The notes under the pieces were generated by a model. It saw only the letters and a list, made by a program, of their open reading frames with translations. It was not told the origin of the DNA and ran no database searches. The position numbers and the translations under genes were made by a program. DNA of 53,314 bases, filler included, from Limisphaerales bacterium (GTDB lineage Bacteria > Verrucomicrobiota > Verrucomicrobiia > Limisphaerales > SIBE01), in the NCBI GenBank assembly GCA_044225505.1. It is 2 parts of 2 records of this genome, joined end to end, with 100 filler letters (N's around TTAATTAATTAA, not from the genome) between each part and the next. Parts side by side here need not be neighbours in the genome. Positions count along the whole stretch, not along the records: positions 1 to 26,753 come from JBGAIN010000118.1; 1 more part is not named here. One strand, written 5' to 3'. Shown here piece by piece: positions 11,739-26,853 of the stretch. The stretch's first letter is position 1; every line of letters starts with the position of its first letter.

Positions 11739-11766
11739 TTGTCATTCCTTGATGGGAGCGTATCAT
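11739..11766 (+). promoter_or_regulatory. Putative sigma70 promoter, leaderless configuration
   Basis: TTGTCA - 16 nt - TATCAT, with an in-frame GTG 7 nt downstream. Confidence 0.4.
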
Positions 11767-11773
11767 GCGCACC

Positions 11774-12382
11774 GTGAAAGAGAAACGAAAGGTTTGGCTG
11801 CCGGTTCTACTAATGGGGTGCTTTGCACTGACCCGTTGGCCCGGCGTCATGCCTCCGAATTTTAGCGCCGCTTATGCGCTCGCGTTTTGCGCGGGCGTAT
11901 ACTTTCCCGGTCGAATGGCGTGGTGGCTTCCGTTGAGCACGCTCGTGGCCACCGACGTTTTAATGAATGTTGCTTATTATCACGTCCCGCCCTTGGACGA
12001 CCGGATGCTGGGGAATTACCTCGCTTACGGCGCGTCGATTTTCTTGGGCCAAAGGTTCAAACCCTCGGCCTCATGGCTGTTTCTGTTGACTGGCGGATTG
12101 TTAGGCGCGGTTTTGTTCTATTTTGTTACGAACACGGTCTCTTGGATGATGGACCCTGCCTATGCGAAAACGTTGGGCGGCTGGATCCAAGCTTTGACGG
12201 TAGGAACTCCTGGGTGGCCCCATACCTGGGAGTTTTTTCGGAATACACTGCTTAGCGGCGGATTGTTCACTGGATTGTTTGCCGGGGCGATGAAGTTGGG
12301 CGGAGCGGTTGAAACGGAAGAGCAGGAAGAAGAGGCAGAGGCCGAGGCGGAGGACGCGGCCGCTGAGGAAGCGAAGGCATAA
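11774..12382 (+). CDS. DUF6580-like putative transport membrane protein
   Basis: PPNFSAAYALAFCAG, FYFVTN, FFRNTLLS; multi-TM; acidic tail. Start at GTG 11774 or ATG 11765. Confidence 0.7.
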   Translation: MKEKRKVWLPVLLMGCFALTRWPGVMPPNFSAAYALAFCAGVYFPGRMAWWLPLSTLVATDVLMNVAYYHVPPLDDRMLGNYLAYGASIFLGQRFKPSASWLFLLTGGLLGAVLFYFVTNTVSWMMDPAYAKTLGGWIQALTVGTPGWPHTWEFFRNTLLSGGLFTGLFAGAMKLGGAVETEEQEEEAEAEAEDAAAEEAKA

Positions 12383-12436
12383 CGCAGGACTTTTGACCCG
12401 CTGCGTAAGTTCGTCGCTGCGGTTTGGTTTCCATAC

Positions 12437-12901
12437 ATGAAACGCATCGGCATCATTTCCGACACCCACGGCCATTTGGACCCGAAGATCCCCGAACTGT
12501 TTAAGGGGGTCGACCTGATCTTTCACGCCGGCGATATCGGCTTACCTTGGTTGATCCTGGAATTGGAGGATATTGCTCCGGTGACGGCCGTCTCCGGGAA
12601 CACCGATGAGGGACTAGAGTACAAAGATACGGAATTGGTCCAAGTCGATGGCCGGAAGTTTCTGGTGCACCACGTGGTGGACGTCCATTCGCCGGAAGAT
12701 AAGGTCAAACGCCGGATCATTCGCGAGAACCCAGATGTCGTCGTTTTCGGTCATACGCATAAACGATTTTGCGAGACCATCGGCCAGACCCTTTATTTCA
12801 ACCCGGGTTACGCTGGCAAACCGCGCCTGAATCAACCTCGGAGCGTGGCGATCTTGACGTGTGACGAGACCGGGATGACCGCGGATTACTTCGAGCTCTA
12901 A
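12437..12901 (+). CDS. YfcE-type metallophosphoesterase
   Basis: SDTH, HAGD, GNTD, FGHTH, NPG motifs. Confidence 0.92.
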   Translation: MKRIGIISDTHGHLDPKIPELFKGVDLIFHAGDIGLPWLILELEDIAPVTAVSGNTDEGLEYKDTELVQVDGRKFLVHHVVDVHSPEDKVKRRIIRENPDVVVFGHTHKRFCETIGQTLYFNPGYAGKPRLNQPRSVAILTCDETGMTADYFEL

Positions 12902-12946
12902 TCGTCCGAAGCCGCGCCGAGCGATGCTCAACGGGGTGGCGACGGG

Positions 12947-12975
12947 TTGTCTAAGCTTGGGATTCCGAGTAGCTT
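12947..12975 (+). promoter_or_regulatory. Putative sigma70 promoter, leaderless configuration
   Basis: TTGTCT - 17 nt - TAGCTT, 5 nt before ATG 12981; no SD. Confidence 0.4.
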
Positions 12976-12980
12976 AGAGC

Positions 12981-13925
12981 ATGATTGCGCTGCTGGCAAA
13001 ACCGCTCGACTGGTGGGTCATTCGTTTGGCGAGCCGGAGCACAGGTGTTTCGGAAGGAAGCCTTGAGCCGAGCCGCGCTCTCGCTCAGATCGTGCCCGAA
13101 CTGCACATCGGTCGCAAGGTAAGCCCGGCCACACCTGTTCTGAATTTCACGGCGGACGATGCTTTCGAGTTCACATCGCCCGTTGAGACGCCCGCACCTT
13201 GCAATAACCGGGTGCACGGGCGCTTGTTCAAAGTGGGTCAGGATTGGCGCGATCGCCCGGTGGCAATATTGATGCACGGCTGGAATGCGGAGGTTTGCTA
13301 TCGTCATCTGTTTCCCCGGCTAGCCCGGCGGTTAAGCCGCGCTGGGCTCAACACGGTAATCTTCGAACTTCCCTACCACATGCAACGCCGGCCGAGAGTG
13401 GGCCCCATGAATGATTTCATCTCGTCGGACCTTTTTGGGATGATGGAGGCGACACGGCAGGCCATTGCCGATGCCAGATCGCTCTGCCAGTGGTGTCGCG
13501 CTCAGGGCGTCCCGGCCGTAGGACTCTGGGGCTTTTCCCTGGGGGCCTGGCTAATCGGTCTGCTCACCCGTTTAGAAGCTGAGCTCAGTTTCGCCGTGCT
13601 TACGACCCCCATTGCGCGGATCGACCGCGCGGTGGCGACCTTGGCGTTCTGCGAGCCAATTCGCCGAAGCATCGTGGCTCAGCCGGTGGACTTGCGCATC
13701 TTGAACCTGGGAACCGAGCGGCCGCTCCTCGCTCCGGAGCGCATTCTCCTAATGCAATCCAAGCATGACCAGTTTGCTCCCGCTGAAACGTTGAACGAAT
13801 TGTGGCGGGCTTGGAAGGAGCCCGCCATGTGGCAGCTTCCTCATGGACACATCAGCATCCTCGCGTCCGGTCGGATTTTTGCGCGGACCGTAGAATGGAT
13901 TTCTGGCGCGGTGCGCACGGCGTAG
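12981..13925 (+). CDS. Alpha/beta hydrolase (ABHD18/DUF2048-like)
   Basis: HGW, LPYHMQRRP, nucleophile elbow GFSLG, Asp (HDQF) and His (HGH). Confidence 0.85.
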   Translation: MIALLAKPLDWWVIRLASRSTGVSEGSLEPSRALAQIVPELHIGRKVSPATPVLNFTADDAFEFTSPVETPAPCNNRVHGRLFKVGQDWRDRPVAILMHGWNAEVCYRHLFPRLARRLSRAGLNTVIFELPYHMQRRPRVGPMNDFISSDLFGMMEATRQAIADARSLCQWCRAQGVPAVGLWGFSLGAWLIGLLTRLEAELSFAVLTTPIARIDRAVATLAFCEPIRRSIVAQPVDLRILNLGTERPLLAPERILLMQSKHDQFAPAETLNELWRAWKEPAMWQLPHGHISILASGRIFARTVEWISGAVRTA

Positions 13926-14097: not shown

Positions 14098-14118
14098 CTT
14101 GTCTTTAATTAAGACAAG
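14098..14118. promoter_or_regulatory. Operator-like inverted repeat upstream of pilM
   Basis: CTTGTCTT-TAATT-AAGACAAG, perfect 8-bp arms in the AT-rich promoter region. Confidence 0.4.
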
Positions 14119-14209: not shown

Positions 14210-15274
14210 ATGGCGTTATTCACTCAAACCGCTTCTAGCAAGAAGCGAATGCACATTGTGGCGATCGACATGGGCACTCGGACCACAAAGGCCGTCGCGC
14301 TCCAACGCCGTGGAACAGGGTTCGATCTGGTTCGATACACCATCCTGGACGCCCCGATTTACGAGAAGAGCATTTCGCCGGAATTGATTGGTGAACACCT
14401 CAAGACCGTGACGGAAGCGGTCGGTGCCAAAACCAAGCAAGTGAGTGTGGTGGTTGGTGTCAATGATTCATTGCTGCGTCACGCGGAAATGCCGCTCGTC
14501 CCGATCGACGACATGCGGTTGATGCTGAAGTTCAACAGCAAGAACTATCTCCAACAAGACCTGCCCGATCACGTTTTCGATTGTTATATCCTGCCGCCGC
14601 GCGCTGGGACGAAGCCTGCCGAAGCGATGAAGGCGAACCAAAAGTGCCGCGTGCTGGTGGGAGGCGCGAAGAAGCAGTTCATGGACAACCTGCAGTCGGC
14701 TTTGAAGGCGGCGGGTTTGGTTCCGGATCAAGTCGCGCCGAGTTTGATGGCGGCGGTGAATGCCTTCGAGTTGGCGCAACCAGAGACTTTTGCCAAGGAG
14801 GTCATAGCCTTGGTCGACATAGGATTTAAGAACTCCAGCATCAATATTTTGCTGGAGGGCGAGCTGATGTTAAGCCGCGTGGTTGCAATCGGCGGCGACA
14901 GGATTACGGCTGGCTTGGCCGAAGCCCTGAATATCAGTTACGCCGAAGCCGAAGGAATCAAGGTTGGGATGCCTGACCAAGTGCAATCAACCATGCTCCC
15001 CCTGCTGACACCGCTCGGCCGCGAGCTGCGAGCGTCCATCGATTTCTTCGAACATCAACAGGACAAGCCCGTCAGCCAGGTTTACATCTCTGGAGGATCT
15101 GCCCGATCGCAGTTCATCATCGAGACGCTGCAAAGTGAATTGATGGTGCCTTGCCAAGGCTGGAATCCACTTAGTTTCCTCAACGTGGCGCTTTCGCCGG
15201 ACCAACGGGGAGAGTTTGAGCAAGTCGCGCCGCAACTGGCCGTCGCTACCGGCGGGGCTGTGGCCGCATTCTAG
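14210..15274 (+). CDS. pilM: Type IV pilus assembly protein PilM (actin-like)
   Basis: AIDMGTRTTK, LVDIG, IGGDRITAGLA, ELRASIDFF, YISGGSA, PQLAVATG. Confidence 0.9.
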   Translation: MALFTQTASSKKRMHIVAIDMGTRTTKAVALQRRGTGFDLVRYTILDAPIYEKSISPELIGEHLKTVTEAVGAKTKQVSVVVGVNDSLLRHAEMPLVPIDDMRLMLKFNSKNYLQQDLPDHVFDCYILPPRAGTKPAEAMKANQKCRVLVGGAKKQFMDNLQSALKAAGLVPDQVAPSLMAAVNAFELAQPETFAKEVIALVDIGFKNSSINILLEGELMLSRVVAIGGDRITAGLAEALNISYAEAEGIKVGMPDQVQSTMLPLLTPLGRELRASIDFFEHQQDKPVSQVYISGGSARSQFIIETLQSELMVPCQGWNPLSFLNVALSPDQRGEFEQVAPQLAVATGGAVAAF

Positions 15275-15281
15275 CAAGAGT

Positions 15282-16169
15282 ATGCCTATTCGGATCAACT
15301 TACTGGCGGAACAACAAGCAGCGGAAGAGGCGCGTCGGCGGGACCCTGTCAAACGCGCGATCTGGGCCGGCGCCGCCCTGGCCGCTATGATGATTCTGTG
15401 GGCTGTCCTGCTGCAACTTCGACTCGCTTCCGCGCGTGCCGAATTGAGCCGCTACAGCAACCAGTTACAGGCCGTTGAAGAGAATTCCAAAGAGGCTCGG
15501 CTCAAATCGAATTCGGCCGGGCAGCTCGAGAGCCGCATTACCAATTTACAGCGGTACAGCACGAACCGCTTCTTCTGCGCGACCGCCCTGGACGCTATTC
15601 AGCAGGTCATGTCTGAGGACATTCGAGTGGTGCAGTTTCAAACGGTCCACTCTTACAGCACGAATTCCGAAAGTACTTACAAGACGAACATCGCCTTCCC
15701 AATTCAGAAAGTCCGAGCGTGGCAGTTCTGGAAGGGGCGATCGTCGCAACCGAATGTGCTCACGCTCGTTTCGAACCAGTTGGCGGTGATTACGAACAAA
15801 GTCGAGGCGCTCAAGGGGAGTGCGCTTCCGTTGATCACTCGCATCGAAGTCACCACCAACGGCAGCGTGGCCAACGCCAAGATCGAAGTCACCAAACCCG
15901 TCGCAGCGGTGGAACGTGTCCAGCTGACCATCAAAGCTCGGGACTATGCCAATCCTCCGGGCAAGCGCGTCGATGAATTCTCCAAAGCGATTGCCGCGCA
16001 TCCTTACTTCAACCAACGCCTGGTCCAAGCGGAGGGCGAGGGAATCCGACTCAGGGAGCGGGCGATTCAACCGGAGTTTGACCCGGGTGATTCGGTCTCA
16101 GCTTCGAAACCATTCGTTCCGTTCGTGATCGAGTGCCGGTACCGCGAAACTCTACGTGCCAATGAATAA
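15282..16169 (+). CDS. pilN: PilN-like protein, longer than usual
   Basis: N-terminal PilM-binding motif IRINLL, single TM, coiled coil; directly after pilM. Confidence 0.75.
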   Translation: MPIRINLLAEQQAAEEARRRDPVKRAIWAGAALAAMMILWAVLLQLRLASARAELSRYSNQLQAVEENSKEARLKSNSAGQLESRITNLQRYSTNRFFCATALDAIQQVMSEDIRVVQFQTVHSYSTNSESTYKTNIAFPIQKVRAWQFWKGRSSQPNVLTLVSNQLAVITNKVEALKGSALPLITRIEVTTNGSVANAKIEVTKPVAAVERVQLTIKARDYANPPGKRVDEFSKAIAAHPYFNQRLVQAEGEGIRLRERAIQPEFDPGDSVSASKPFVPFVIECRYRETLRANE

Positions 16170-16793
16170 GTTGCCCAAGGAAAAACGCGACAAACTGCTG
16201 CTGGTGGCCCTGGGGTTCTAGCGGCAATTTATCTGCTGGTCATTAGCGCCCAACAAGAGTCGTTGCAGGAATGCGCCGACAAGACTGAGGCCGCGAAGGA
16301 ACAACTCAACAAGGCTGAGCGTTGGTTGCGCATGGCGCCGACGATTGAAACTCGCCTGAGTGCTTACCGCAAGGAACTCGAAGCGAGGCAGGAGAACATG
16401 GCGCCGGTCGACAAGTTTAAGTGGTTTTACAATACCATGGAACGGTTTCTCGCCCAACACCAAGTAAAGCTCGTCGATATCACGCGCGAACCAGAGGTAG
16501 GCGACGCCGGGGTTCTCCCCAAATTTCCTTATCAAGCTGCCACTTTCGGAGTGAAGCTCAACGCTTACTTCCAGGATTTTGGCTCTTTCCTCGCGGAATT
16601 CGAAAATCAGTTTCCATTCATGCGGGTGCAAAATCTGGAACTGGAATCGGAAGTCGGCGGTCGCCTGGGAGTTACGGAGACGATCGACCAGGAGCGCAAG
16701 CCAGCGCCTGGCGAAGCTCGAACGCAGGCGTCTGAACGGCTTGCGATCACCATGCGAGTGGTCACCTTGGTCAAGCCCAACGGAATCCTTTAA
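16162..16793 (+). pseudogene. pilO: PilO-like protein, frameshifted near 16215
   Basis: MNKLPKEKRDKLLLVALG continues in another frame as VLAAIYLLVISAQQ...AYFQDFGSFLAEFENQFPFMRV (PilO/GspM-type motif). Probably an assembly error. Confidence 0.7.
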
Positions 16794-16800
16794 ACGCGTT

Positions 16801-17400
16801 ATGAAGCCTGTTCTCGCAAAGGTTGCAACTCTCAGAGGCGTCAGTTTGGGAATGATCAAGTCTCTTCACTCCGGGATGTGGATTACGGCCCTCGGCGCGG
16901 TCTTATTGGCCACGGGTTGCGGTTCCCCTCCAGCGCCAGGCAATGCCGCGGGCAACTCTCCCGCAGCACCCAAGGCTCCTGCGACCAGCGGAAGCCTGGC
17001 AACCGATGCCAAAGCGGCGGCCAATGTCCAAGCAGCTGTTCCCCGAGCGGTCTTTCACACGGGACCTCAAGCGGGACGTGATCCCTTCTTTCCTAACTCC
17101 ACGCGTGGAATGGCAAAGGCCACGCCGGAGAGCGCGCCCGTTCCGCAGGTACCGCTGGTCAGTCACATCAAACTTTTTGGGATCAGGCCTGGGACCGATC
17201 GTCCGATGGCCTTGATCAACCGGACACCCTTCGCTCCGGGGGAAGAGGGAGACGTGACCGTTGTCATTGGCAGTGAGTCGAACCGGCCTGAGATTCAGAA
17301 AGTCAATATTCGCTGCCTCGAGATTCGCCGCGACTCAGTCTTGATCAGCATCGCTGGAGAAGTCGGGGTGAAGGAACTGCGCATGGCCCAGGCGAAATGA
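16801..17400 (+). CDS. PilP/GspC-like lipoprotein
   Basis: Lipobox LATGC, Pro/Ala linker, GRDPFFP motif, beta domain (ALINR). Sits between pilO and the secretin. Start at 16801 or 16852. Confidence 0.7.
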   Translation: MKPVLAKVATLRGVSLGMIKSLHSGMWITALGAVLLATGCGSPPAPGNAAGNSPAAPKAPATSGSLATDAKAAANVQAAVPRAVFHTGPQAGRDPFFPNSTRGMAKATPESAPVPQVPLVSHIKLFGIRPGTDRPMALINRTPFAPGEEGDVTVVIGSESNRPEIQKVNIRCLEIRRDSVLISIAGEVGVKELRMAQAK

Positions 17401-17470
17401 GTCGCAAACGCGCAGGATGTGCCCACTCACCGCTGAAACTATCTCCGCTTAATTTTATCGGGTCAGAATT

Positions 17471-19190
17471 ATGAATATGAAGCTCGCGTTTTCGCTCCTG
17501 TTCGGGCTTGCCCTATGTGGCCGGGTCGTCCCTTTCGCAGACCGATCCGCCGGTGGCAGCCCCCAACACGGCGGCTCCTGCGAATCCCGCGGAAAATCCG
17601 GCACCTGCGCCCGCAACCGCTCCCGTGACCGCGCCTGCCGATCCCGCGGGCGCCGCTCTTTCAACCGCACCTGGGACGGGCTCTCTTGGTGGATCCCGTC
17701 GCGACGGCCATGATTGTTCGCCGGAGGCGATCCCCGCCGGCTGGCATCACTTCGACGAACGACAACCGTGGACCCTTGACTCTGGAACAAGAGCTTCCTG
17801 CGGCGATTCAGTTTCTCGAGCGAATGGCCAACCTGAATATCCAGTTCGATCCGAGCTTGTTTTCACGAACAACATCCCCGGACCTGATGGGAAAGTGACG
17901 GCAGCGCCGGTGGTCTCACTGCGATGGGAGAATGTGACCGCGGAGGATGCGCTCCAGGAAGTGCTCGATAACTACGGTCTGATGCTGGTCGTGAACCCGA
18001 AGACGACCGTCGGACGGGTGACCCGGAAGCCAACCGTGCTGCCGCTGACCACGGCCATCGTGCAGCTGAAGTACAGCAGCCCCACCAACATCATGGAAGT
18101 GTTAAAGTCCACCTTCGTCGATCCCCGGAGCAAGGTAAGCGCGGATTTGCGAACCAGCCAGTTGGTAGTCGTGACTACAACGCAAGAAATGTATGCCGCG
18201 ACCAATTTAATCGCGGTGCTGGATACGCCGACCAAACAGGTTCTAATTGAAGCGCGAATGCTGGAAACCGCCAAGAGCCCGCGTTCGGTGAAGGGGATCG
18301 ATTGGTCGGGAACCTTGGAAGGGCAGAACTTCAGCTTTGGGAATGGAATCACTTCGGGCCAGACCACGACTCGGACGCCTGGAGACTCTTCGACCACGAC
18401 TTTGCCGAGCGGACGGACCATGACCACCAGCAGTGGCACGAGCTCGACGACAGAATTGCTCACCTCGATTGGGAGTGGTGGGATTAGCGCAAATACGCTG
18501 CGTGGCTTTTCGCCAAGCACAGCGTTCCTCAATGCGGATGGCGTGCACGCGGTCCTTTCGTTCTTGAACTCAGACAATGACACGGAAGTTGTCGCCACGC
18601 CTCGGGCTGTGACGGCCGATAACCAAACCGCGATCCTTTCGGTGACGCGCGCGTTTCCAATTTTCGAAGTCACACCGGGATCGGCCAACGTCGCCGCCGC
18701 GGCGCAAGTGAAATACACTAACCTGGGCACGATCTTGAAAGTAACGCCGCGCATCACGGCCAACAGCAATATCGCGTTGAAGGTGGTGCCTGAGGTGTCG
18801 AACATCGATTCCAAGGACCGTCAGATTATCAACGGGAATGTGAACGAGGCGAACGTCTATGCGATCCGTCGAATGGAAGCGGACGTGGTCATCCCAAGTG
18901 GCAATACTCTCGTCATGGGTGGCTTGATTAGCGACAACTCCAGCAAGTCCTACAATAAGGTTCCGATCCTCGGAGATCTGCCCGGAGTCGGCCTGGCTTT
19001 TCGTAAGGATTCCAAATCGCGCAACAAGGCGAATCTGATTATCTTTGTCACTCCGACGATCATTAATGATCAAGACTTTCAACCGACCGCATCGACCTTC
19101 CTGAGGACCCCGGTTCCCCCGCAGAACGACGTTCAGGAATCGGCCTGGGACAGCGGTAAACCCTACAAGTGGAACCGCTCCAAGAAATGA
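17471..19190 (+). CDS. Secretin (PilQ/GspD family); N-terminal part broken by at least 3 frameshifts
   Basis: LDTPTKQVLIEAR, GIDW, ATPRAVTADNQTA, LKVTPRI, TLVMGGLI, KVPILGDLPGVG, LIIFVTPTI. Signal peptide (17471 frame) and N-domains (17508 and 17686 frames) are spread over different frames. Confidence 0.9.
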
Positions 19191-19233
19191 CGTGGCTTAT
19201 GAGTTGCTCACTCGAAGGATCGACATTAGCGCT

Positions 19234-22200
19234 ATGAACACGCCCGCCAGAATGCGGAAGTCCTCGACGCATCGCCAGCTCTGCCCGAGCGGCGGCGCAC
19301 TCCTGGGCGCGTTGCTCGCCTGGTCGGCGTGGACGGTGGGCCTCCAAGCGGAGCCAACCGTTAAGACCCTCGGAGGTGGCCGGCTCACGGTGAATGGCCC
19401 GGATGCGGGCTTTTCTGACGGCGATATCTTGCAGGCGGCCCAGTTCCACAGTCCCTACGGCTGCGCCGTCGACACTACCGGCCGAATCTATGTGGCCGAT
19501 CGTGACAACGGAGCGCTCCGACGGCTCGACCCCGCCGCGAATCGGGCGCGAACGCTCCTCACTGGCCTCAAGGTGCCTGTCGCTGTCATCGTCGATCTGA
19601 CCAACTCGGTCTACGTCTTGACTCAGCAGGACGGCACCATCGTCAAGCTGCAACGCGGGACCACGAGCGTCCTGGCCACCGGGTTAATCGCTCCTTCCGC
19701 CATGACTTGGGATGGAGATGCTGCACTGTATGTTGCTCAGACCGCAGGCACCGTCGTCCGAGTGAGCCTGGCGGACGGAGCCGTTTCGAGTCCAATCATC
19801 ACTGGCTTGAATCAACCGAGCGGAATTGCCTACCTTGACAACGGTTTCGTCGCCGTCAGCGAGGCGGGTTCCAACCAAATCCGCATTTGGGATCCCCGAA
19901 ATGGTGCGCTGAAGTCTCGGGTCGGGACGGGCGTCGCCGGGTTTGCCGATGGGCCAGCCACCATCGCCCAGTTCAATCAGCCTCAGCATCTGGCCAAAGC
20001 ACCCGGTGGGAGCATGCTGGTGGCGGATCGCTTGAATCATCGAGTTCGCCTGATTGAAAGCGACGGTTTTGTCACGAGCCTTTACGGAGTTGATCCCACC
20101 CTGTGGGAGGGGCCGGCCTGCACGACGTGTGATCCAATCATCTTGCCAGGGTGGTTCGACGGTTCGGTCGAGTTCGCGGAAGCGCGCGAACCGGTCGGAG
20201 TGGCCGTAAGCAGCGATGGAAAGATTTACACCACGGAGGATTTCTATCATCTGGTGCGCGAAATCAGCGGTGCGAGCTTTGTCGATGGTGGTGGGTCCGG
20301 TGAAACCAACACTCTCTATGCGCCGGTGATCTCGCCGAACAGCGGCTATTTTCCGATGGGACAGATCATCCAGGTCACCAATCCCAATGTCAGCGCGCTA
20401 TTGCCTTCTGCGGTCTATTATACGACGGACGGAACCGAACCGACGACCAACAGCTTGAGAGTCGTTATGGACGGAAATGCAGGTTCAATTCTCTGGCAGG
20501 AAAAGCGCCGGGATCTGACTTCACTTCGGTTGATAGCGTTCGTGGGATCGAAGTCGAGTCCAATCACGAGCGGTCAATCTGTGGTCGCCAATGAAATTGG
20601 CATTTCGCAGAATGTCGCCGCTGGCATCGGGTCGACGGCGATTCTTCCGGTTGTGGTTAATCTCCGCACCAACGAACAGTTGCAGTCGCTGCAATATCGG
20701 CTGGAAGTCAGTCCCATTTCGTCCGGGACGCCAATGATTCCTGAGACTTTCGGGGCGATCTCCTATTCGACCAACGATTTCATCACGGTATACACCGCCG
20801 CGGATCCTAAGGGAGAAGCGAATTTCCGGGTTTTGCCATATAACTTCGATCAGACGCGCGGGGTGGCCGTCACGTTCATCGGGACCAACGCCAATCTCTC
20901 CGTGAAAGCGTTCGGCGTCGTGGGCATGATAACCGTTCCCATCCCACCATCCGCGCACGTCGGTGATCGATATAAAGTCTCACTGCTCAATCCGTCGGGA
21001 ACATCCGATGGTGGCGAGCAGCGGGTGGCCATAGCGGCGATGCCCGATCGGATTTTGGAGGTCCAGGCGGCGCATTATCTGGTTGGAGACTCGGCGAGCG
21101 CCATCTGGTACAACTCGGCTCAACTCGATGCCACGGGCGCACTTCGGCAGGGATTTGGAGATGGCATCCTGGATAACAGCGACGTGAACAACGTCTTCTC
21201 TGTGGCCTTGGGAATGCGGGTTCCCTATCCCCACACGGATCTCTTTGATGCGATGGACGCGTTCCCCGAGGACACGATTACAAGCGCCGGCGGCGATGGC
21301 CTGATTCGATTCCTCGACTGGCAAGTCATCCTCATGCGGTCTTTAGGCCTGGATCCGGCTCGCTGGGAGAGAGTTTGGGCGGACGGCGGGGTACGAATCA
21401 CTCGAGGGTCCAATAGCCCAGGAGCTCCCAACACTGCGGGAGTAAAGTTGACCGCGTTGCCGGGCGAAGTTTGGAGCCGACAAGTGGTACTCGCCGCACA
21501 ATCGTTTGAAGTTGTCCAACCAGGAGCGATTCTGGACGTCCCCGTCACTCTCGATGTTGCCGCGGGCTGTGAACTGGCGGGATTGGCGTTTCGCGCCATG
21601 GTTCGAGCGGATGGCGGCGCTCCGCTCTTGGACCGTCCGATTCAGTTTGTCCCAGCCGCGAGCATTCCTGCGCCGACCCAGAGCCTGGTGCCGAGCTATG
21701 ACACGGTCTTGTGCGGTTGGCCGCTGGTGCCGTCGTCCTCATTCGATCCGACCTTACGCGGCAAAGTGTTGCTGGGGTACATCCGCGTGCCCGTGCCTTG
21801 GCGCTCGACGCAGGGACAGACCTATACCGTTCATTTCTCGAATGCGGATGGATCACCCGACATCCAGACCCAGTATGAATTTGAAACCAAGTCCGGCACG
21901 CTCTGGATCTTGAGCTATGCGGATAAACCAGCGGACGTAAGTTCGGACGAGTGGAAGCAGCACTTTTTTGGGAGTGCCTTGAGTGACACGGCGATCGATA
22001 GCGCCGATCCCGATCACGACGGCACGCCGAACTACCTCGAATATTTGTCCGGCACCGACCCGACCGATCCACAATCGTTCCTTCGCCTGAATGCTGCTCC
22101 GCTCGACGCCCAGGGCAAGAATGTCGTGCTCAGTTGGCTGAGTGCGCCCGGGAAGACTTACCAGATCGAGATGGCGACTAGTTTGTTGGGCAAAGACTGG

Positions 22201-22305
22201 ACCGTCGTCGCCAACGGCTTGATCGGGACGGGCCGGTCCCAGCAATGGATTCACTCTATGAACACCAATAACAACAGCTTTTATCGAATTCGTCTGCAAC
22301 CCTAA
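19234..22305 (+). CDS. Large exported protein: NHL repeats - CHB_HEX_C-like - cohesin-like - dockerin-like - cohesin-like - C-terminal domain (paralog 1)
   Basis: Signal peptide ..VGLQA/EP; NHL repeats (FHSPYGCAVD..YVAD, FNQP..VADRLNHRVR); YYTTDGTEP; GDGILDNSD...DAFP..GGDGLIRFLD; DPDHDGTPNYLEYLSGTDP; terminal FYRIRLQP. Confidence 0.85.
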   Translation: MNTPARMRKSSTHRQLCPSGGALLGALLAWSAWTVGLQAEPTVKTLGGGRLTVNGPDAGFSDGDILQAAQFHSPYGCAVDTTGRIYVADRDNGALRRLDPAANRARTLLTGLKVPVAVIVDLTNSVYVLTQQDGTIVKLQRGTTSVLATGLIAPSAMTWDGDAALYVAQTAGTVVRVSLADGAVSSPIITGLNQPSGIAYLDNGFVAVSEAGSNQIRIWDPRNGALKSRVGTGVAGFADGPATIAQFNQPQHLAKAPGGSMLVADRLNHRVRLIESDGFVTSLYGVDPTLWEGPACTTCDPIILPGWFDGSVEFAEAREPVGVAVSSDGKIYTTEDFYHLVREISGASFVDGGGSGETNTLYAPVISPNSGYFPMGQIIQVTNPNVSALLPSAVYYTTDGTEPTTNSLRVVMDGNAGSILWQEKRRDLTSLRLIAFVGSKSSPITSGQSVVANEIGISQNVAAGIGSTAILPVVVNLRTNEQLQSLQYRLEVSPISSGTPMIPETFGAISYSTNDFITVYTAADPKGEANFRVLPYNFDQTRGVAVTFIGTNANLSVKAFGVVGMITVPIPPSAHVGDRYKVSLLNPSGTSDGGEQRVAIAAMPDRILEVQAAHYLVGDSASAIWYNSAQLDATGALRQGFGDGILDNSDVNNVFSVALGMRVPYPHTDLFDAMDAFPEDTITSAGGDGLIRFLDWQVILMRSLGLDPARWERVWADGGVRITRGSNSPGAPNTAGVKLTALPGEVWSRQVVLAAQSFEVVQPGAILDVPVTLDVAAGCELAGLAFRAMVRADGGAPLLDRPIQFVPAASIPAPTQSLVPSYDTVLCGWPLVPSSSFDPTLRGKVLLGYIRVPVPWRSTQGQTYTVHFSNADGSPDIQTQYEFETKSGTLWILSYADKPADVSSDEWKQHFFGSALSDTAIDSADPDHDGTPNYLEYLSGTDPTDPQSFLRLNAAPLDAQGKNVVLSWLSAPGKTYQIEMATSLLGKDWTVVANGLIGTGRSQQWIHSMNTNNNSFYRIRLQP

Positions 22306-22422
22306 ACATCACTCACCACTATGAACAATGCCTCAAGTCTACGCTCGTCCCGTGAGTCCGGGCGCCGGGTGCAGACGTTGCCTAGTCCGCCTCCTATCAC
22401 TGAACTTATTAACCCCAATGCT

Positions 22423-25400
22423 ATGAAAAAAACCTGGTGCGTACTGATCGCCCTGATGTTTGCGCTCGGGGCGGTTGCTCAGCCCGCGCTGCAAACACTC
22501 GTCTCCTCTGGCCTATCCGAACCGTACGGTGTGGCCGTTGATGCCAAAAACAACATCTACATCACCGACAGCGTCAACAACCGGATTGCCAAGTACAATC
22601 CGAACTCCGGCTCTTTGACCAACCTGGCCGGTGTGCTCGGTGAACCCGGCAATAATGACGGGCCCGGGCCGTTCGCTCACTTCTCGAGCCCCCAAGGGAT
22701 TGTTTACGCCCGCGGCGGTCTGGTGGTGGCGGATTCCGGAAATCACCTGATTCGGTTTGTGACCTTGGCCGGAGCAGTGTCGACCCTGGCGGGCAGCACC
22801 GCGGGAGTCCAAGACGGCGTGGGCGCAGCAGCCCAGTTTAACGCGCCCGCCGGATTGGCTGCCGACGCGGCCGGGAACATCTATGTGGCCGACCTCTTGA
22901 ACAACCGCATCCGCAAAATCGATCTCGCCAACAAGGTGACGACAATCGCCTCCGGGTTGTCACGCCCATCCGGCGTGAGCATCGACAAGGCGAAGAACCA
23001 AATCTACGTGGCGGACACGGGGACGCACTCGATCCGGGTGATCCAGCCGGACGGCACCGTTACTCTCTTCGCGGGAAGCGGTTCGCCTTTCATCAGCGGC
23101 CTAAAAGAGTCCCTGATTGCGACGAACGCTCTCTTCAATGCGCCTCGCGGACTCGTTTGGGTCGGAGGCACGACCGGATTGCTCGTGAGCGATACGGGAA
23201 ACCACCGCATTCGTCGGATCTTCTCCAACACGAACTTTAACACCTTCTCCACGGAAAGCTTCGTCAGCTCGACATTGATCTCTCCAGTCGGCATGTCGAT
23301 TGACGAAAACGGCAATTTCCCGCTCGTCGACCTTGCGGCGAATGCTCTGATCAGTTTGCAGGTGACGGCGCCCCAAGCCCCTGTTAGTAACCCGAAGATC
23401 GGGATTGTGGTGCTGAACACCAACTCGTTTGGCGATCTCGTCACGGAACTGATCCCTATCGTCAATTCAACGTTTAATAACGACGTCAACGTGGCGATCC
23501 TGGCGGAGGACGGCACCGAGACATTCTACACGCTGAACTCAGCGGCTGATTTTCCGGAGGATGCAACGAGCCGAAATACGCCCGCACGTTATGTGAACGG
23601 CCTGCTGGAATGGACGAATTCAATCGTCGTGCCGAGCGAAGATGGCTCTAATGTCCTGGTCCGCGCCATCAGCACGCAGGACGGTCGTCGTCCGAGTGAA
23701 GTGGTGTCCGCTCGATTCCAGTTCAAGGTTGCCAATCCGATTATCAATGGAAAGAATCCGGGTAACTTCACTGTCTCCGACAACACGGACAACGCCGAGA
23801 TCTGGTATTCGACCGATGGGTCCGTGCCGACGAACAGCGCGCCGTCTCAACTCTATCTGCCGGGCAGTCACTTGAACATTGTCAACGGCACGAATAACGT
23901 GCTGTTCACAGCTCGCGCCTTCAAGCGTGGCTATACCCCGAGCACCGAGGTCAGCAAAACCTTCCTGTTCACCGATCTGGAAACCAGCGTCATTGGCGTG
24001 ACTCGCGATTACACCGCGGGCATCGGTTCGACCATCGTGGTCCCGGTCGAGGTGCGCGTGGCCGGTGCGGATGCGCTTCGGTCCTTGCAGTTCCGCGTCG
24101 AAGTGACCGCGAATAATGGCGCTCCGCCGATCTCGGCACAATTCCGCAGTCTGCCGTTTAGCACGAACGACTTCGTCTTCGTTCCCGCGCCCAGCACAAA
24201 CCCGCCGATCTCTTCGGTCTACAGCTCCAATAACGTGACCGGACTTAGTATCGCGTATATCGGCCAAAGTTCTGGTTTGGAGTTGCGCGAGACAGCAACG
24301 GCGGCACTCTTGGCGGTGCCGATCCCACCGGACGCTCTCGAAGGTCAGACTTACACCATCTCGCTGGTGCAGCCCTCTGGGACAGCGGACGCTGGGCAAT
24401 CGCCCGTGCCCCTGACCGTGCTGGCAAATCGCACGATCACCGTGTCTAACGTCAGCTATCTGGTCGGCGACAGCGCCGTGAGCTCCTGGTACAACGCCGG
24501 TGATTTCGGCAATGAAGACCTGGCGAACAATGACGTTAACAACGCCTTCCACGTCTCCCTGGGGTTATACAATCTCTTCCCGTTCACGGATCTGTTCGAT
24601 TCCATGGACGCGTTTCCGCCCGATTCGACCACGACTGTGGGTGGTGACGGCCAAATCCGCTTCCTCGATTGGCAGCTGATCCTTCGACGGTCCTTGCGCT
24701 TAAGCAGTCCGAACTGGCAGCGTTCCTGGTCGGTCGGCGGCCTCCGCGCCCCTGGCAGTGCGACCCTCAGCGGCTCGCCCGATACCGCAGGGCAGAAGCT
24801 CGTTGCACCAGCTCCAGGCGCCGTTTGGGTGCGCGAAGCGTCGTTCCTCGCCTCCGCTGTGGAAAATGCGCAGCCCGGTGAAACCGTTAAAGTTCCCCTC
24901 TACGTCAAGGTTGAGGAAGGTTCCTCCCTCTCTGGTTTGCAGTTCCTTGCTCGCGTCACGGCGTCTGACCGTGCTCCCGACCTGACCAGTCCGGCCGTGT
25001 TTGTCCCGGCGGACGGAACGCCCGTGGGCCGCAGTGCGGATGGATTAGCTCCCAACCAAGTGGCTTATGCCTGGGATCTCGGTTCATTCAACCCGGCCCT
25101 GCAAGGTAAAGTGTTGCTCGGTGATGTGGTCTTCACGATCCCTGCGACCGCTAAACCCGGTCAGTCTTATCGCGTCCGTTTCGGCAATGCGGACGGCGCT
25201 CCCAACGAAAATACACAATACGAGTTCGAATCGTTCTCCGCTCGCGTCTGGGTGAGTGTTCCCGCCACGGGCCCGCAAGAGATCATCTCGGACGAGTGGA
25301 AGATCAAGTTCTTTGGAACCGTCGACAATGTGGACGCAGCACCGAACGCTGATCCTGACAAAGACGGCGCGCCCAACTGGAAAGAATACCTGGCGGGCAC

Positions 25401-25656
25401 CGATCCGATCAAGGCCGACTCGCACCTGCACCTGCGTGCTCCTGAGCAGAAAGTGAAGAATGGCAAGAAGCAATTGGCCTTACGCTGGCTGAGTGCACCT
25501 TCCAAGCACTACGTCATCGAAACCACCACCGACCTGATCAACGGGCCGTGGACAGTCGTCGCGACTGGAATCGTGGGTGACGGCAATCTGAAGGAGTACC
25601 TGCAAGCCACCCCTGGCCAAGGTCCTCAGTACTACCGAGTGCGGCTGCAAGACTAA
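22423..25656 (+). CDS. Large exported NHL / CHB_HEX_C-like x2 / cohesin-dockerin-cohesin protein (paralog 2)
   Basis: Signal peptide MKKTWCVLIALMFALGAVA/Q. Same domain order as paralog 1, with shared strings AGIGST, STNDF, PSGT, YLVGDSA, GGDGxIRFLDWQ, NADG, SDEWK, WLSAP. Confidence 0.87.
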   Translation: MKKTWCVLIALMFALGAVAQPALQTLVSSGLSEPYGVAVDAKNNIYITDSVNNRIAKYNPNSGSLTNLAGVLGEPGNNDGPGPFAHFSSPQGIVYARGGLVVADSGNHLIRFVTLAGAVSTLAGSTAGVQDGVGAAAQFNAPAGLAADAAGNIYVADLLNNRIRKIDLANKVTTIASGLSRPSGVSIDKAKNQIYVADTGTHSIRVIQPDGTVTLFAGSGSPFISGLKESLIATNALFNAPRGLVWVGGTTGLLVSDTGNHRIRRIFSNTNFNTFSTESFVSSTLISPVGMSIDENGNFPLVDLAANALISLQVTAPQAPVSNPKIGIVVLNTNSFGDLVTELIPIVNSTFNNDVNVAILAEDGTETFYTLNSAADFPEDATSRNTPARYVNGLLEWTNSIVVPSEDGSNVLVRAISTQDGRRPSEVVSARFQFKVANPIINGKNPGNFTVSDNTDNAEIWYSTDGSVPTNSAPSQLYLPGSHLNIVNGTNNVLFTARAFKRGYTPSTEVSKTFLFTDLETSVIGVTRDYTAGIGSTIVVPVEVRVAGADALRSLQFRVEVTANNGAPPISAQFRSLPFSTNDFVFVPAPSTNPPISSVYSSNNVTGLSIAYIGQSSGLELRETATAALLAVPIPPDALEGQTYTISLVQPSGTADAGQSPVPLTVLANRTITVSNVSYLVGDSAVSSWYNAGDFGNEDLANNDVNNAFHVSLGLYNLFPFTDLFDSMDAFPPDSTTTVGGDGQIRFLDWQLILRRSLRLSSPNWQRSWSVGGLRAPGSATLSGSPDTAGQKLVAPAPGAVWVREASFLASAVENAQPGETVKVPLYVKVEEGSSLSGLQFLARVTASDRAPDLTSPAVFVPADGTPVGRSADGLAPNQVAYAWDLGSFNPALQGKVLLGDVVFTIPATAKPGQSYRVRFGNADGAPNENTQYEFESFSARVWVSVPATGPQEIISDEWKIKFFGTVDNVDAAPNADPDKDGAPNWKEYLAGTDPIKADSHLHLRAPEQKVKNGKKQLALRWLSAPSKHYVIETTTDLINGPWTVVATGIVGDGNLKEYLQATPGQGPQYYRVRLQD

Positions 25657-25673
25657 GCAGCGAATTCCATGGG

Positions 25674-25713
25674 CCCGCGGAAAGCAGGCGTATCCACCCT
25701 GTCTTTCCGCGGG
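25674..25713 (+). other. Intergenic GC-rich stem-loop without a U-tract
   Basis: CCCGCGGAAAG (25674-84) / CTTTCCGCGGG (25703-13), plus an inner CAGG/CCTG pair. Confidence 0.55.
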
Positions 25714-25813
25714 ACCTCTCTGTCCGGTCACTTTCTAAACTCGCGCAATGAAAAATCCGACCCTGCTTCTGTTGCCGGTGCATTCATCCTGCGCGTCTCG
25801 TCTTCGTAGCGTC

Positions 25814-26753
25814 ATGAACGAATCTGTCCCTTTCTCCGATTGCTGCCTGTCCAGCGGAAGTCTTCTGCGCCGATGGACCAAGAGTGTCCTCGCGTTGGCC
25901 GCAGGTCTGTGGATGACCAACAGCCAGGCTCAGACCGTCGATACGGTGCTGACCAACCGGTTGGCGGAACCGTACAACGTTGTGATTGAAGGAGGAACCT
26001 ATTTCATTAGCGACAGCGGCAACGATCGCATTATCCGCTTTGTCCCGGACAGCGGAGCATTCTCGACGCTGGCCGGGTTTGCCGGGCGCCCTGGATCCAC
26101 CGATGGTAAAGGCGTCTTTGCTCGTTTCTTTAGTCCACGTGGGCTTGTCTCTGTTCCGGCTCGAAATGGCTTGGTCGTCTCAGACTATGCCAACCATACA
26201 CTCCGATTGGTGAAGCTGGACGGCACCGTCACGACGCTCGTCGGAACGCCTGGCCAGGCTGGATTCGACGCTACTCACTTTAATTTCCCTTCCGCCCTCG
26301 CTACCGACACCAATGGGAACGTTTATATTTCCGACACTAAGAATAACGCGATTCGCAAACTTGATCTAGCAGGCAACTTGTCCACGGTCGCCACGGGTTT
26401 TAGCGAACCAGACGGAATCGCGGTGGGCGACAACGGCGACCTCTGGATTGCCGATAGTCGCAATTATACCATCAAACGACGCCGGGCCAACGGCACGGTG
26501 GAGTTGATCGCGGGGATTCCCGGCCAGGCTGGGGCTCTCGATTCGATCTTTTCCAACGAAACCCTTTTCAATAACCCAAGCGCGCTGCTTTGGTTGGGGG
26601 GAGCGTCCGGGTTGCTCGTCTCGGACTCGGGCAATCACGCGTTGCGCCGCATCTATTTTGATCCCGAAATCGGTGGGTATTCCGTCGAAACCTACGCGGG
26701 ATCTCCCACTCAGCCAGGCTTTGTTAATGGCCCCGTGCGCACGGCTAAGTTTA
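25814..26753 (+). CDS. NHL-repeat exported protein (paralog 3), truncated by the contig end
   Basis: Signal peptide ..TNSQA/Q. LAEPYNV, ARFFSPRGL and LLWLGGASGLLVSDSGNH align with paralog 2. Runs into the N gap. Confidence 0.82.
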
Positions 26754-26853
26754 NNNNNNNNNNNNNNNNNNNNNNNNNNNNNNNNNNNNNNNNNNNNTTA
26801 ATTAATTAANNNNNNNNNNNNNNNNNNNNNNNNNNNNNNNNNNNNNNNNNNNN
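26754..26853. other. Artificial contig-joining linker
   Basis: 44 N + TTAATTAATTAA (stops in all six frames) + 44 N. Confidence 0.95.

Follow-up and report, generated by a model that had tools for sequence, protein, structure and literature searches.

Putative adhesin genes downstream of a pilus secretin

The window analyzed in this work, i.e., the whole stretch of 53,314 nucleotides from a Limisphaerales bacterium (GCA_044225505.1, in the following G000), carries the genes pilM, pilN and pilO, a pilP-like gene and a secretin gene, followed by an array of three paralogues, eight genes that all lie on the plus strand. This locus, of a kind found in a widespread group of uncultured Verrucomicrobiota, is in our view a variant of the type IVa-like pilus machine, equipped with a so far undescribed adhesin module that is coupled to the secretin. 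A long lip hairpin was almost confined to secretins that carry the array, and sequence comparison thus points to a possible adhesive structure docked on the pore as a crown or plug. Because the lip co-varies with the array, the functional tie between array and secretin is strengthened. Window bases 1–26753 stem from contig C208 of G000 only; 26754–26853 are an artificial N spacer with a stop-codon linker, and the DNA 3' of the spacer is the unrelated contig C209. Within C208, all eight genes lie at the positions and on the strand given by a first-pass annotation of this DNA.

We surveyed 111 genomes of the order and found the secretin in 82 and the cohesin/dockerin-like base of the array proteins in 45. 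When two tables were read together, the first array gene was located directly 3' of the secretin gene and on the same strand in 43 of the 45 base carriers, and the linkage of NHL-cohesin genes to the secretin operon that had been proposed for this window hence holds in these genomes. Among 94 base matches, 88 lie downstream on the contig of the secretin and two on separate contigs of fragmented loci (G000 and G206), while the remaining four belong to G003 and G038, in neither of which the secretin was found. None of the 94 matches was located away from the secretin on contiguous DNA with the secretin assembled. Among 250 genomes sampled across the wider phylum, none had a match to the array base, and in a phylum sample this PilM was present in 6 of 120 genomes, four of these being long fused forms. 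In G003 (L123, contig C151), an array gene truncated at its 5' end directly follows pilMNO, with pilP and the secretin missing and a partial match to the partner PilC (see below); decay or misassembly may account for this locus.

The array is an optional module of the operon: it is absent in 39 of the 82 secretin carriers and also in 32 of 50 PilM-anchored loci with enough sequence. Where present, it comprises one to five genes, with type 3 last in the mapped loci, and single-gene arrays are closest to type 3. In eight loci the slot 3' of the secretin holds an unrelated family of signal-peptide proteins of 290–390 residues (L027:14723-15892, L044:15430-16491, L048:14628-15773, L060:14581-15501, L075:14550-15506, L083:5816-6688, L106:13170-14078 and L061:14460-15416); elsewhere without an array the slot is often empty. 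Six of 111 genomes have this slot family, in five of which it lies immediately 3' of the secretin; none of the six has the array. The family had no match in Pfam, PDB or Atlas. Secretins with the slot family have short lips of 34–51 residues.

The secretin lip and its possible role in docking

The secretin (17471..19190, plus strand) has 575 residues and consists of a signal peptide, a linker, an N0/STN-like domain, one N3 domain and the secretin domain. It passes the Pfam thresholds for Secretin and Secretin_N; the STN match, which falls into a part frameshifted in the window, is weak. PilQ (6ve2) aligns with it across N3 and the secretin domain (E 2e-29). N0-N3-secretin is the type IVa layout, and according to the available text of a survey 27 of 197 secretins have no AMIN domains (PMC7545093). 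After the GIDW strand, the sequence contains a putative extracellular lip or top-gate insert of 61 Thr/Ser-rich residues (18345..18527, plus strand), assigned by alignment and composition, with a distal hairpin at 18393-18428 (plus strand) that is absent in three same-genus relatives without the array. In an alignment of 71 secretins, it is this segment that varies with the downstream gene. An insert of GspD from enteropathogenic Escherichia coli (EPEC; 5w68) lies at the equivalent place and aligns with the lip. The top gate of the EPEC secretin projects above the outer membrane (PMC10550240, available text), and the aligned EPEC insert probably corresponds to this top gate. Among orthologous secretins some are longer, with 650–680 instead of about 550 residues and extra N0-like repeats (L013:8012-10045, L014:2954-4915). 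G000 furthermore encodes a 734-residue secretin near a contig end (L005:230-2434, contig C188), beside which no alignment genes were seen.

In a first set of regions, all 33 array carriers featured a Thr/Ser-rich insert of 61–86 residues; one of them (L053) was counted as a carrier from its NHL genes, with the base unverified. A turn of the P[SG]GR type, a motif picked after viewing these data, was found in 32 of the 33 carriers and in 1 of 38 others. For a blind set of 60 new regions, reduced by six unparsed rows and four duplicates, thresholds of at least 58 residues and at least 27% Thr+Ser had been fixed beforehand from the first set. Here, a long Thr/Ser-rich lip was present in 31 of 31 array carriers and in 2 of 19 non-carriers, and visual reading of three of the unparsed rows gave the same picture. 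A tree calculated from 120 secretins without the lip has at least 17 changes of array state, and its supported branches provide 11 independent pairs, of which 10.6 point in one direction (median p 0.001). In three same-genus pairs (G221/G028, G225/G036 and G163/G228) the array-less member keeps the lip stem and is devoid of the distal hairpin only. G243 even has two secretins, one of each kind, and the array-less second one is without the distal hairpin.

Could these patterns arise without any contact between lip and array? Secretin allele and adhesin genes might form a co-transcribed cassette that is acquired, lost or exchanged as one, with the lip changing independently, e.g., under phage pressure or for sealing. 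The frequent switching of the array label, with no fewer than 12 changes on the PilM tree and 17 on the secretin tree, would be compatible with this, as would the unrelated genes that also follow the secretin in some loci and the notion, in the available text of PMC10550240, that top gates may merely improve sealing. We nevertheless judge this explanation highly improbable: the array-less relatives of the same genus lose only the distal hairpin and retain the stem, the tree with the 11 concordant pairs was built on the secretin itself minus its lip, and some 260 other proteins that share the C-terminal domain of the array proteins are scattered, whereas the array family is not.

Several observations nevertheless weigh against a crown docked on the lip. 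The strict turn motif was found in just 22 of the 31 blind carriers (1 of 19 non-carriers), and the PilM tree yields only four supported independent pairs (p 0.125). G167 and G199 are genuine exceptions in which the Thr/Ser-rich lip is long although turn motif and array are absent. No orthologous secretin was found in G003 (96% complete), which has an intact array gene and a truncated one. The extracellular hairpin form of the lip is likewise a prediction from alignment and composition. Furthermore, both traits would also be coupled if secretin and array moved together as a single cassette. Finally, the dockerin-like module of the array base aligns in register with nine dockerins of G000 in HHalign, albeit with a score of 19.6 and a probability of 6.9%; none of 30 shuffles reaches this score, yet the C-terminal Asp loop scores equally high.

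Taken together, we give an even chance to a model in which the array is an optional adhesin module and would make physical contact, as a crown or collar, with the outer rim of the secretin in a type IVa-like pilus machine. PilM, PilN, PilO and the lipoprotein would connect the inner-membrane platform with the secretin, a role established for the family, the identity of these proteins being shown in part. Motor, platform and pilins would be supplied from other loci, most likely with the PilC of contig C160, as co-occurrence indicates. From gene spacing and signal peptides, the three array proteins would be made from the transcript of the secretin and cross the inner membrane via Sec; they might then reach the surface through this pore or by a general route based on their shared C-terminal domain. 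Co-evolution of lip and array suggests that the Thr-rich lip hairpins form a ring to which the constant cohesin/dockerin-like base of the array proteins may bind, thereby building the crown or collar at the pilus exit. Type 3 might form its core, with types 1 and 2 as add-ons, and from the domain layout stalks of variable length would hold the NHL propellers outward to bind surfaces, polymers or cells.

We may extend this tentatively, at a somewhat less than even likelihood, to a rim that serves as a modular docking platform. A co-evolving ring of lip hairpins would hold a crown of giant adhesins, interlinked by repurposed cohesin/dockerin-like contacts. The downstream cassette, be it the array, the second family or nothing, would set what the pore displays, and the C-terminal domain would be a phylum-wide export tag for these and hundreds of other proteins.

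For the question whether secretins expose a functional outer surface and what binds there, the locus offers a candidate crown together with its candidate docking element, down to a 12-residue hairpin that has been naturally deleted several times. If the model is true, cohesin-fold modules would gain a role in a Gram-negative pilus machine, and an order abundant in sludge, soil and freshwater would possess a possible adhesion or floc-forming device.

Rather than being docked permanently, the array proteins might be PilY1-like tip adhesins or plugs, or cargo of the pilus, which would traverse this secretin or reside within it at the pilus tip, with the long lip as a gate tailored to them. This view, which we regard as rather unlikely, draws on the same linkage and lip data. 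In the available texts, PilY1 corks the secretin of P. aeruginosa and touches it via its propeller (PMC11525922), a grafted top gate changes the passage of modular substrates (PMC10550240), and some type IV pili secrete proteins (PMC4471445). The PilY1/PilC tip adhesins resemble the array proteins in being large non-pilin proteins with signal peptide and beta-propeller. However, the conserved PilY1 propeller is C-terminal (PMC4471445, available text), whereas array proteins have N-terminal NHL propellers in varying number. They furthermore have no vWA domain, occur as several paralogues on a cohesin/dockerin-like base and are not accompanied by minor pilin genes. Up to five paralogues of 1000–1900 residues fit poorly to a single cork, and 39 of 82 machines have no array at all. 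PF05567 (PilY1) had no match in the array proteins; in G000 as a whole no PilY1 was matched either, in a search whose control query also matched nowhere.

Thermus thermophilus provides a precedent for the crown preferred here. For its PilQ, a separate protein was proposed as extracellular cap, and crown defects halved adherence; this crown is about 40 Å high, and in the available part of the paper its protein identity is not given (PMC5745081). The term "crown" does not appear in a Thermus paper of 2026 (PMC13039148). Thermus PilQ has no lip, whereas the candidates described here are operon-encoded, larger than 100 kDa and paired with a lip hairpin. The Vibrio-type top gate of type II secretion systems (T2SS) is also an optional apical ring of beta-hairpins at an aligned position; according to the available text, it acts in sealing and confers no substrate specificity (PMC10550240), whereas the lip described here tracks one neighbor family.

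Array proteins and their shared C-terminal domain

Array gene 1 (19234..22305, plus strand) encodes a signal peptide, an NHL propeller, a CHB_HEX_C stalk, a cohesin, a dockerin-like module, a second cohesin, a calcium loop and the C-terminal domain. Gene 2 (22423..25656, plus strand; likely start 22423) has the same layout, and the cores of both are 42% identical. Gene 3, of type 3 and last in the array, is cut by the contig end; its 5' part occupies 25748..26753 (plus strand). The adjacent contig could be recovered, as the first-pass annotation had advised, and gene 3 resumes on C70 (C70:1-2481). A single intact protein from a same-genus genome matches both pieces with 65% identity, and about 47 residues are missing between the pieces. 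As gene 3 ends on C70 and the next gene downstream faces the opposite way, the array consists of exactly three genes, which sharpens the previous count of at least three.

In gene 2, the NHL beta-propeller head maps to 22483..23370 (plus strand; Pfam NHL, 104.4 bits). Two cohesin-fold domains follow on the same strand, the first at 23983..24456 (137 residues aligned to 4uyp_A, Z 14.3, root-mean-square deviation (rmsd) 2.4; Foldseek E 1e-8) and the second at 24823..25266 (135 residues aligned to 5nrk_A, Z 14.3, rmsd 2.5; Foldseek E 1.7e-8). The base models have a predicted local distance difference test score of 93, cohesins are the top matches of both sandwiches, and the first non-cohesin follows at Z 9.6. 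In the predicted structures, the cohesin fold of both domains is thus confirmed, while at the sequence level PF00963 gives weak matches in 21 of 63 family members. Between them lies a module of two Asp-anchored loop-helix units with three helices (24457..24735, plus strand; weak profile match), which had no sequence match in Pfam or PDB. It is the most conserved part of the family, with invariant Asp and Gly residues, and helix residues are conserved but differ between types 1/2 and type 3. We refer to it as a divergent, putative dockerin-like module. Of the cohesin and dockerin folds originally annotated, both cohesins were thus corroborated by predicted structure, whereas the dockerin was matched weakly by profile.

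Known cohesin-dockerin modules (4uyp, 5nrk, 2xdh, 2vo8) share the cohesin fold, present twice per chain here, and the duplicated Asp-anchored loop-helix. They differ in that the array proteins are only 10–20% identical, carry the divergent dockerin-like unit between the cohesins of one chain, are tied to a secretin, belong to a Gram-negative host and come without enzymes. In its available text, a cellulosome survey names this superphylum once, for a planctomycete (PMC11557425). No carbohydrate-active catalytic module was found in the three window proteins or in the 25 long homologs scanned, in agreement with the annotation of the array as non-cellulosomal; the layout is an adhesin-like head, stalk and base. 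Among these 25 homologs (of 150), the numbers of propellers and stalk repeats vary. The stalk is CHB_HEX_C/Fn3-associated, and signal peptides were seen in the sequences. With E values up to 1e-30, the family comprises 525 clusters at 50% identity, and database names are generic only. A predicted complex of two type 3 cores with calcium scored 0.02 against a mark of 0.42 and was counted neither for nor against binding. G000 also contains giant open frames of 2,800–12,700 residues with canonical dockerins (contigs C311, C139, C65, C292 and C36), and only two Pfam cohesins genome-wide.

The array proteins end with a TSP3-like Asp loop and a beta-rich C-terminal domain of about 70 residues that closes with (F/Y)YR (25288..25653 in gene 2, plus strand); the domain itself maps to 25429-25653 and, in gene 1, to 22078-22302 (both plus strand). 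An iterated profile, in which iteration may drift, found it in 262 proteins of G000 and at the very end of 224 of the 260 complete ones. The carriers make up 7.9% of coded residues and are mostly soluble, with an internal membrane segment in 1 of 204, compared with 698 of 5117 other proteins. The domain occurs in 40 of 41 relatives and in 52 of 121 genomes of a phylum sample, and it corresponds to no Pfam or NCBIfam family. It may serve as a tag for export or anchoring. A role as a machine-specific signal was discarded, since G013, G019 and G033 carry 50–67 copies and pilM, the secretin and the partner PilC were not found there. Prepilin genes adjoin a gene with this domain in 13 of 117 cases against a background of 3.4%, i.e., about threefold, which we regard as a lead only. 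In one array-less genome, an RCC1/Ig protein with the C-terminal domain is encoded 3' of a secretin whose lip has no distal hairpin (L111:6952-11607).

The distribution of this domain also bears on the export route. The dedicated export conduit put forward in the first-pass annotation was not supported by the survey: the operon is kept without the array in 39 of 82 genomes, its motor and platform are encoded elsewhere, and the C-terminal domain is found in about 260 unlinked proteins and in genomes without the machine. A T2SS-like conduit from which the exported proteins leave the pore and polymerize by cohesin-dockerin contacts into a free lattice or filament is hence, in our estimate, quite improbable. 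Two cohesin folds and a dockerin-like module per chain, paralogue-specific conserved residues on the dockerin-like helices and the tight linkage would suit such a lattice. However, it would leave the conserved lip tip unexplained, it has to account for 50–67 domain copies in three genomes where the machine genes were not found, and the single N3 domain and separate PilM are unlike the two full T2SS loci of G000.

The pilus machine and its locus

Upstream of the secretin, the alignment genes are recognizable to different degrees. pilM (14210..15274, plus strand) encodes a stand-alone actin-like alignment subunit of 354 residues that matches Pfam PilM_2 (PF11104) with 92.9 bits (cut-off 27) and TIGR01175 with 118.6, under the cut-off of 133; matches were found in 33 of 41 relatives. 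PilN-like (15282..16169, plus strand; 295 residues) has a single membrane anchor and no Pfam match, and it weakly matches the second half of the Amuc_1101 family (E 7e-6). PilO (16162..16793, plus strand) was assigned by a weak profile match, with E 0.0023 to Myxococcus PilO (3jc8) and a GspM-like match at E 5e-5. The PilP-like lipoprotein (16801..17400, plus strand; start at 16801 or 16852) has a lipobox Cys near 16918, with a lipobox also in a same-genus homolog, and a conserved RDPFF motif; no PDB or Pfam match was obtained, and a profile search found no PilP structure. PilN and the PilP-like protein stay below every family cut-off and were assigned by position, topology (one membrane anchor and a lipobox, respectively) and conservation in relatives.

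As first annotated, the operon contains no pilin, assembly ATPase or PilC/GspF gene, and the same applies to the locus in relatives. Motor, platform and pilin genes outside the pilMNOPQ operon are usual for type IVa pili. G000 has 16 PF00437 and 19 PF00482 matches, among them a PilB–PilT-like–PilB–PilC cluster on C40. It also has two complete T2SS loci, one locus of the Amuc type and 119 genes with a prepilin motif, none of them assigned to this machine; an H-X9-DG motif is found in 50 of 117 prepilin-motif genes. The PilC encoded on C160 is present in 81 of the 82 secretin carriers and was not found in 19 of 29 non-carriers, and in G184 a PilC of this type lies on the contig and strand of the secretin. 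The C40 PilC was rejected as specific partner: 104 of 111 genomes encode it, among them 18 of the 19 with neither the secretin nor the C160 PilC. On C160, a gene for a sigma-54 response regulator comes after that of the partner PilC (L131:936-3622), an order that we take to resemble pilC-pilR arrangements.

The pilMNOPQ operon is best read as part of an order-wide type IVa-like pilus machine. It shares gene order, stand-alone PilM, a lipoprotein before the secretin and the N0-N3-secretin layout with the pilMNOPQ operons of P. aeruginosa, V. cholerae and M. xanthus, and it differs by the missing AMIN domains, the long Thr/Ser-rich lip, one to five large cohesin-fold proteins and divergent PilN and PilP. 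The N0-N1-N2-N3 layout of a GspD was not found, there being one Secretin_N domain here and three in the T2SS locus on C303. Neither here nor in relatives did the locus contain fused GspL, GspE, GspF or the pseudopilins GspG-K, and PilM is separate. Akkermansia Amuc_1098-1102 (NF042912, NF045709, NF042425) is likewise a Verrucomicrobiota alignment and secretin operon without motor genes; it has, however, a fused PilMN and a secretin of about 900 residues, for which the scores here were 75 and 82 bits against cut-offs of 650 and 750. In G000, this system has its own locus on C78 with a PilM of 635 residues. TcpF and CofJ are signal-peptide colonization proteins of type IVb pilus operons that are exported through the secretin of the operon; unlike the array proteins, they are small, released and encoded in complete type IVb operons, and we know of no lip co-variation for them. 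Operon, array family, lip and C-terminal domain were not found described in a literature search that covered few subscription papers and no supplements.

In the window, pilO and the secretin gene are frameshifted. Contigs from three sequencing runs of three other studies were compared with the region: a 10-base gap in pilO at 16214 is filled in contigs of two runs (X5 and X6), the third having no coverage there, and the secretin indels at 17530-17858 were each seen in the contigs of two or three of the three runs. The frameshifts are assembly errors, and pseudogene status was ruled out as these contigs restore both frames, with corrected lengths of 213 residues for PilO and 575 for the secretin. 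Where labeled, runs carrying the region are sludge or bioreactor metagenomes, and the named relatives are metagenome-assembled Verrucomicrobiota genomes, several labeled Limisphaerales or Pedosphaera.

The annotated absence of an evident terminator stands for the gap between the secretin and array gene 1, where no terminator-like site was found (fold z +0.7). It does not extend to genes 2 and 3, between which the RNA may form a strong GC-rich hairpin without a U tract (25671..25716, plus strand; −37.5 kcal/mol, z −4.1, 0 of 200 shuffles). This hairpin is strong in some relatives only and may adjust subunit ratios 5' of gene 3. In relatives there is no hairpin 3' of the secretin (median −11 to −12 kcal/mol) and one 3' of type 3 (median −21), a pattern compatible with a single transcript. 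From an RNA run (X16), short contigs cover pilN, the secretin and array genes 1 and 2; they bridge no gene boundary, and DNA carry-over is possible. A promoter scan of the locus gave matches at chance level. 5' of pilM, positions 11765-13925 encode a DUF6580 protein, a YfcE-type phosphoesterase and an alpha/beta hydrolase, the first two of which recur upstream in several relatives, and an AT-rich palindrome is located at 14098-14118.

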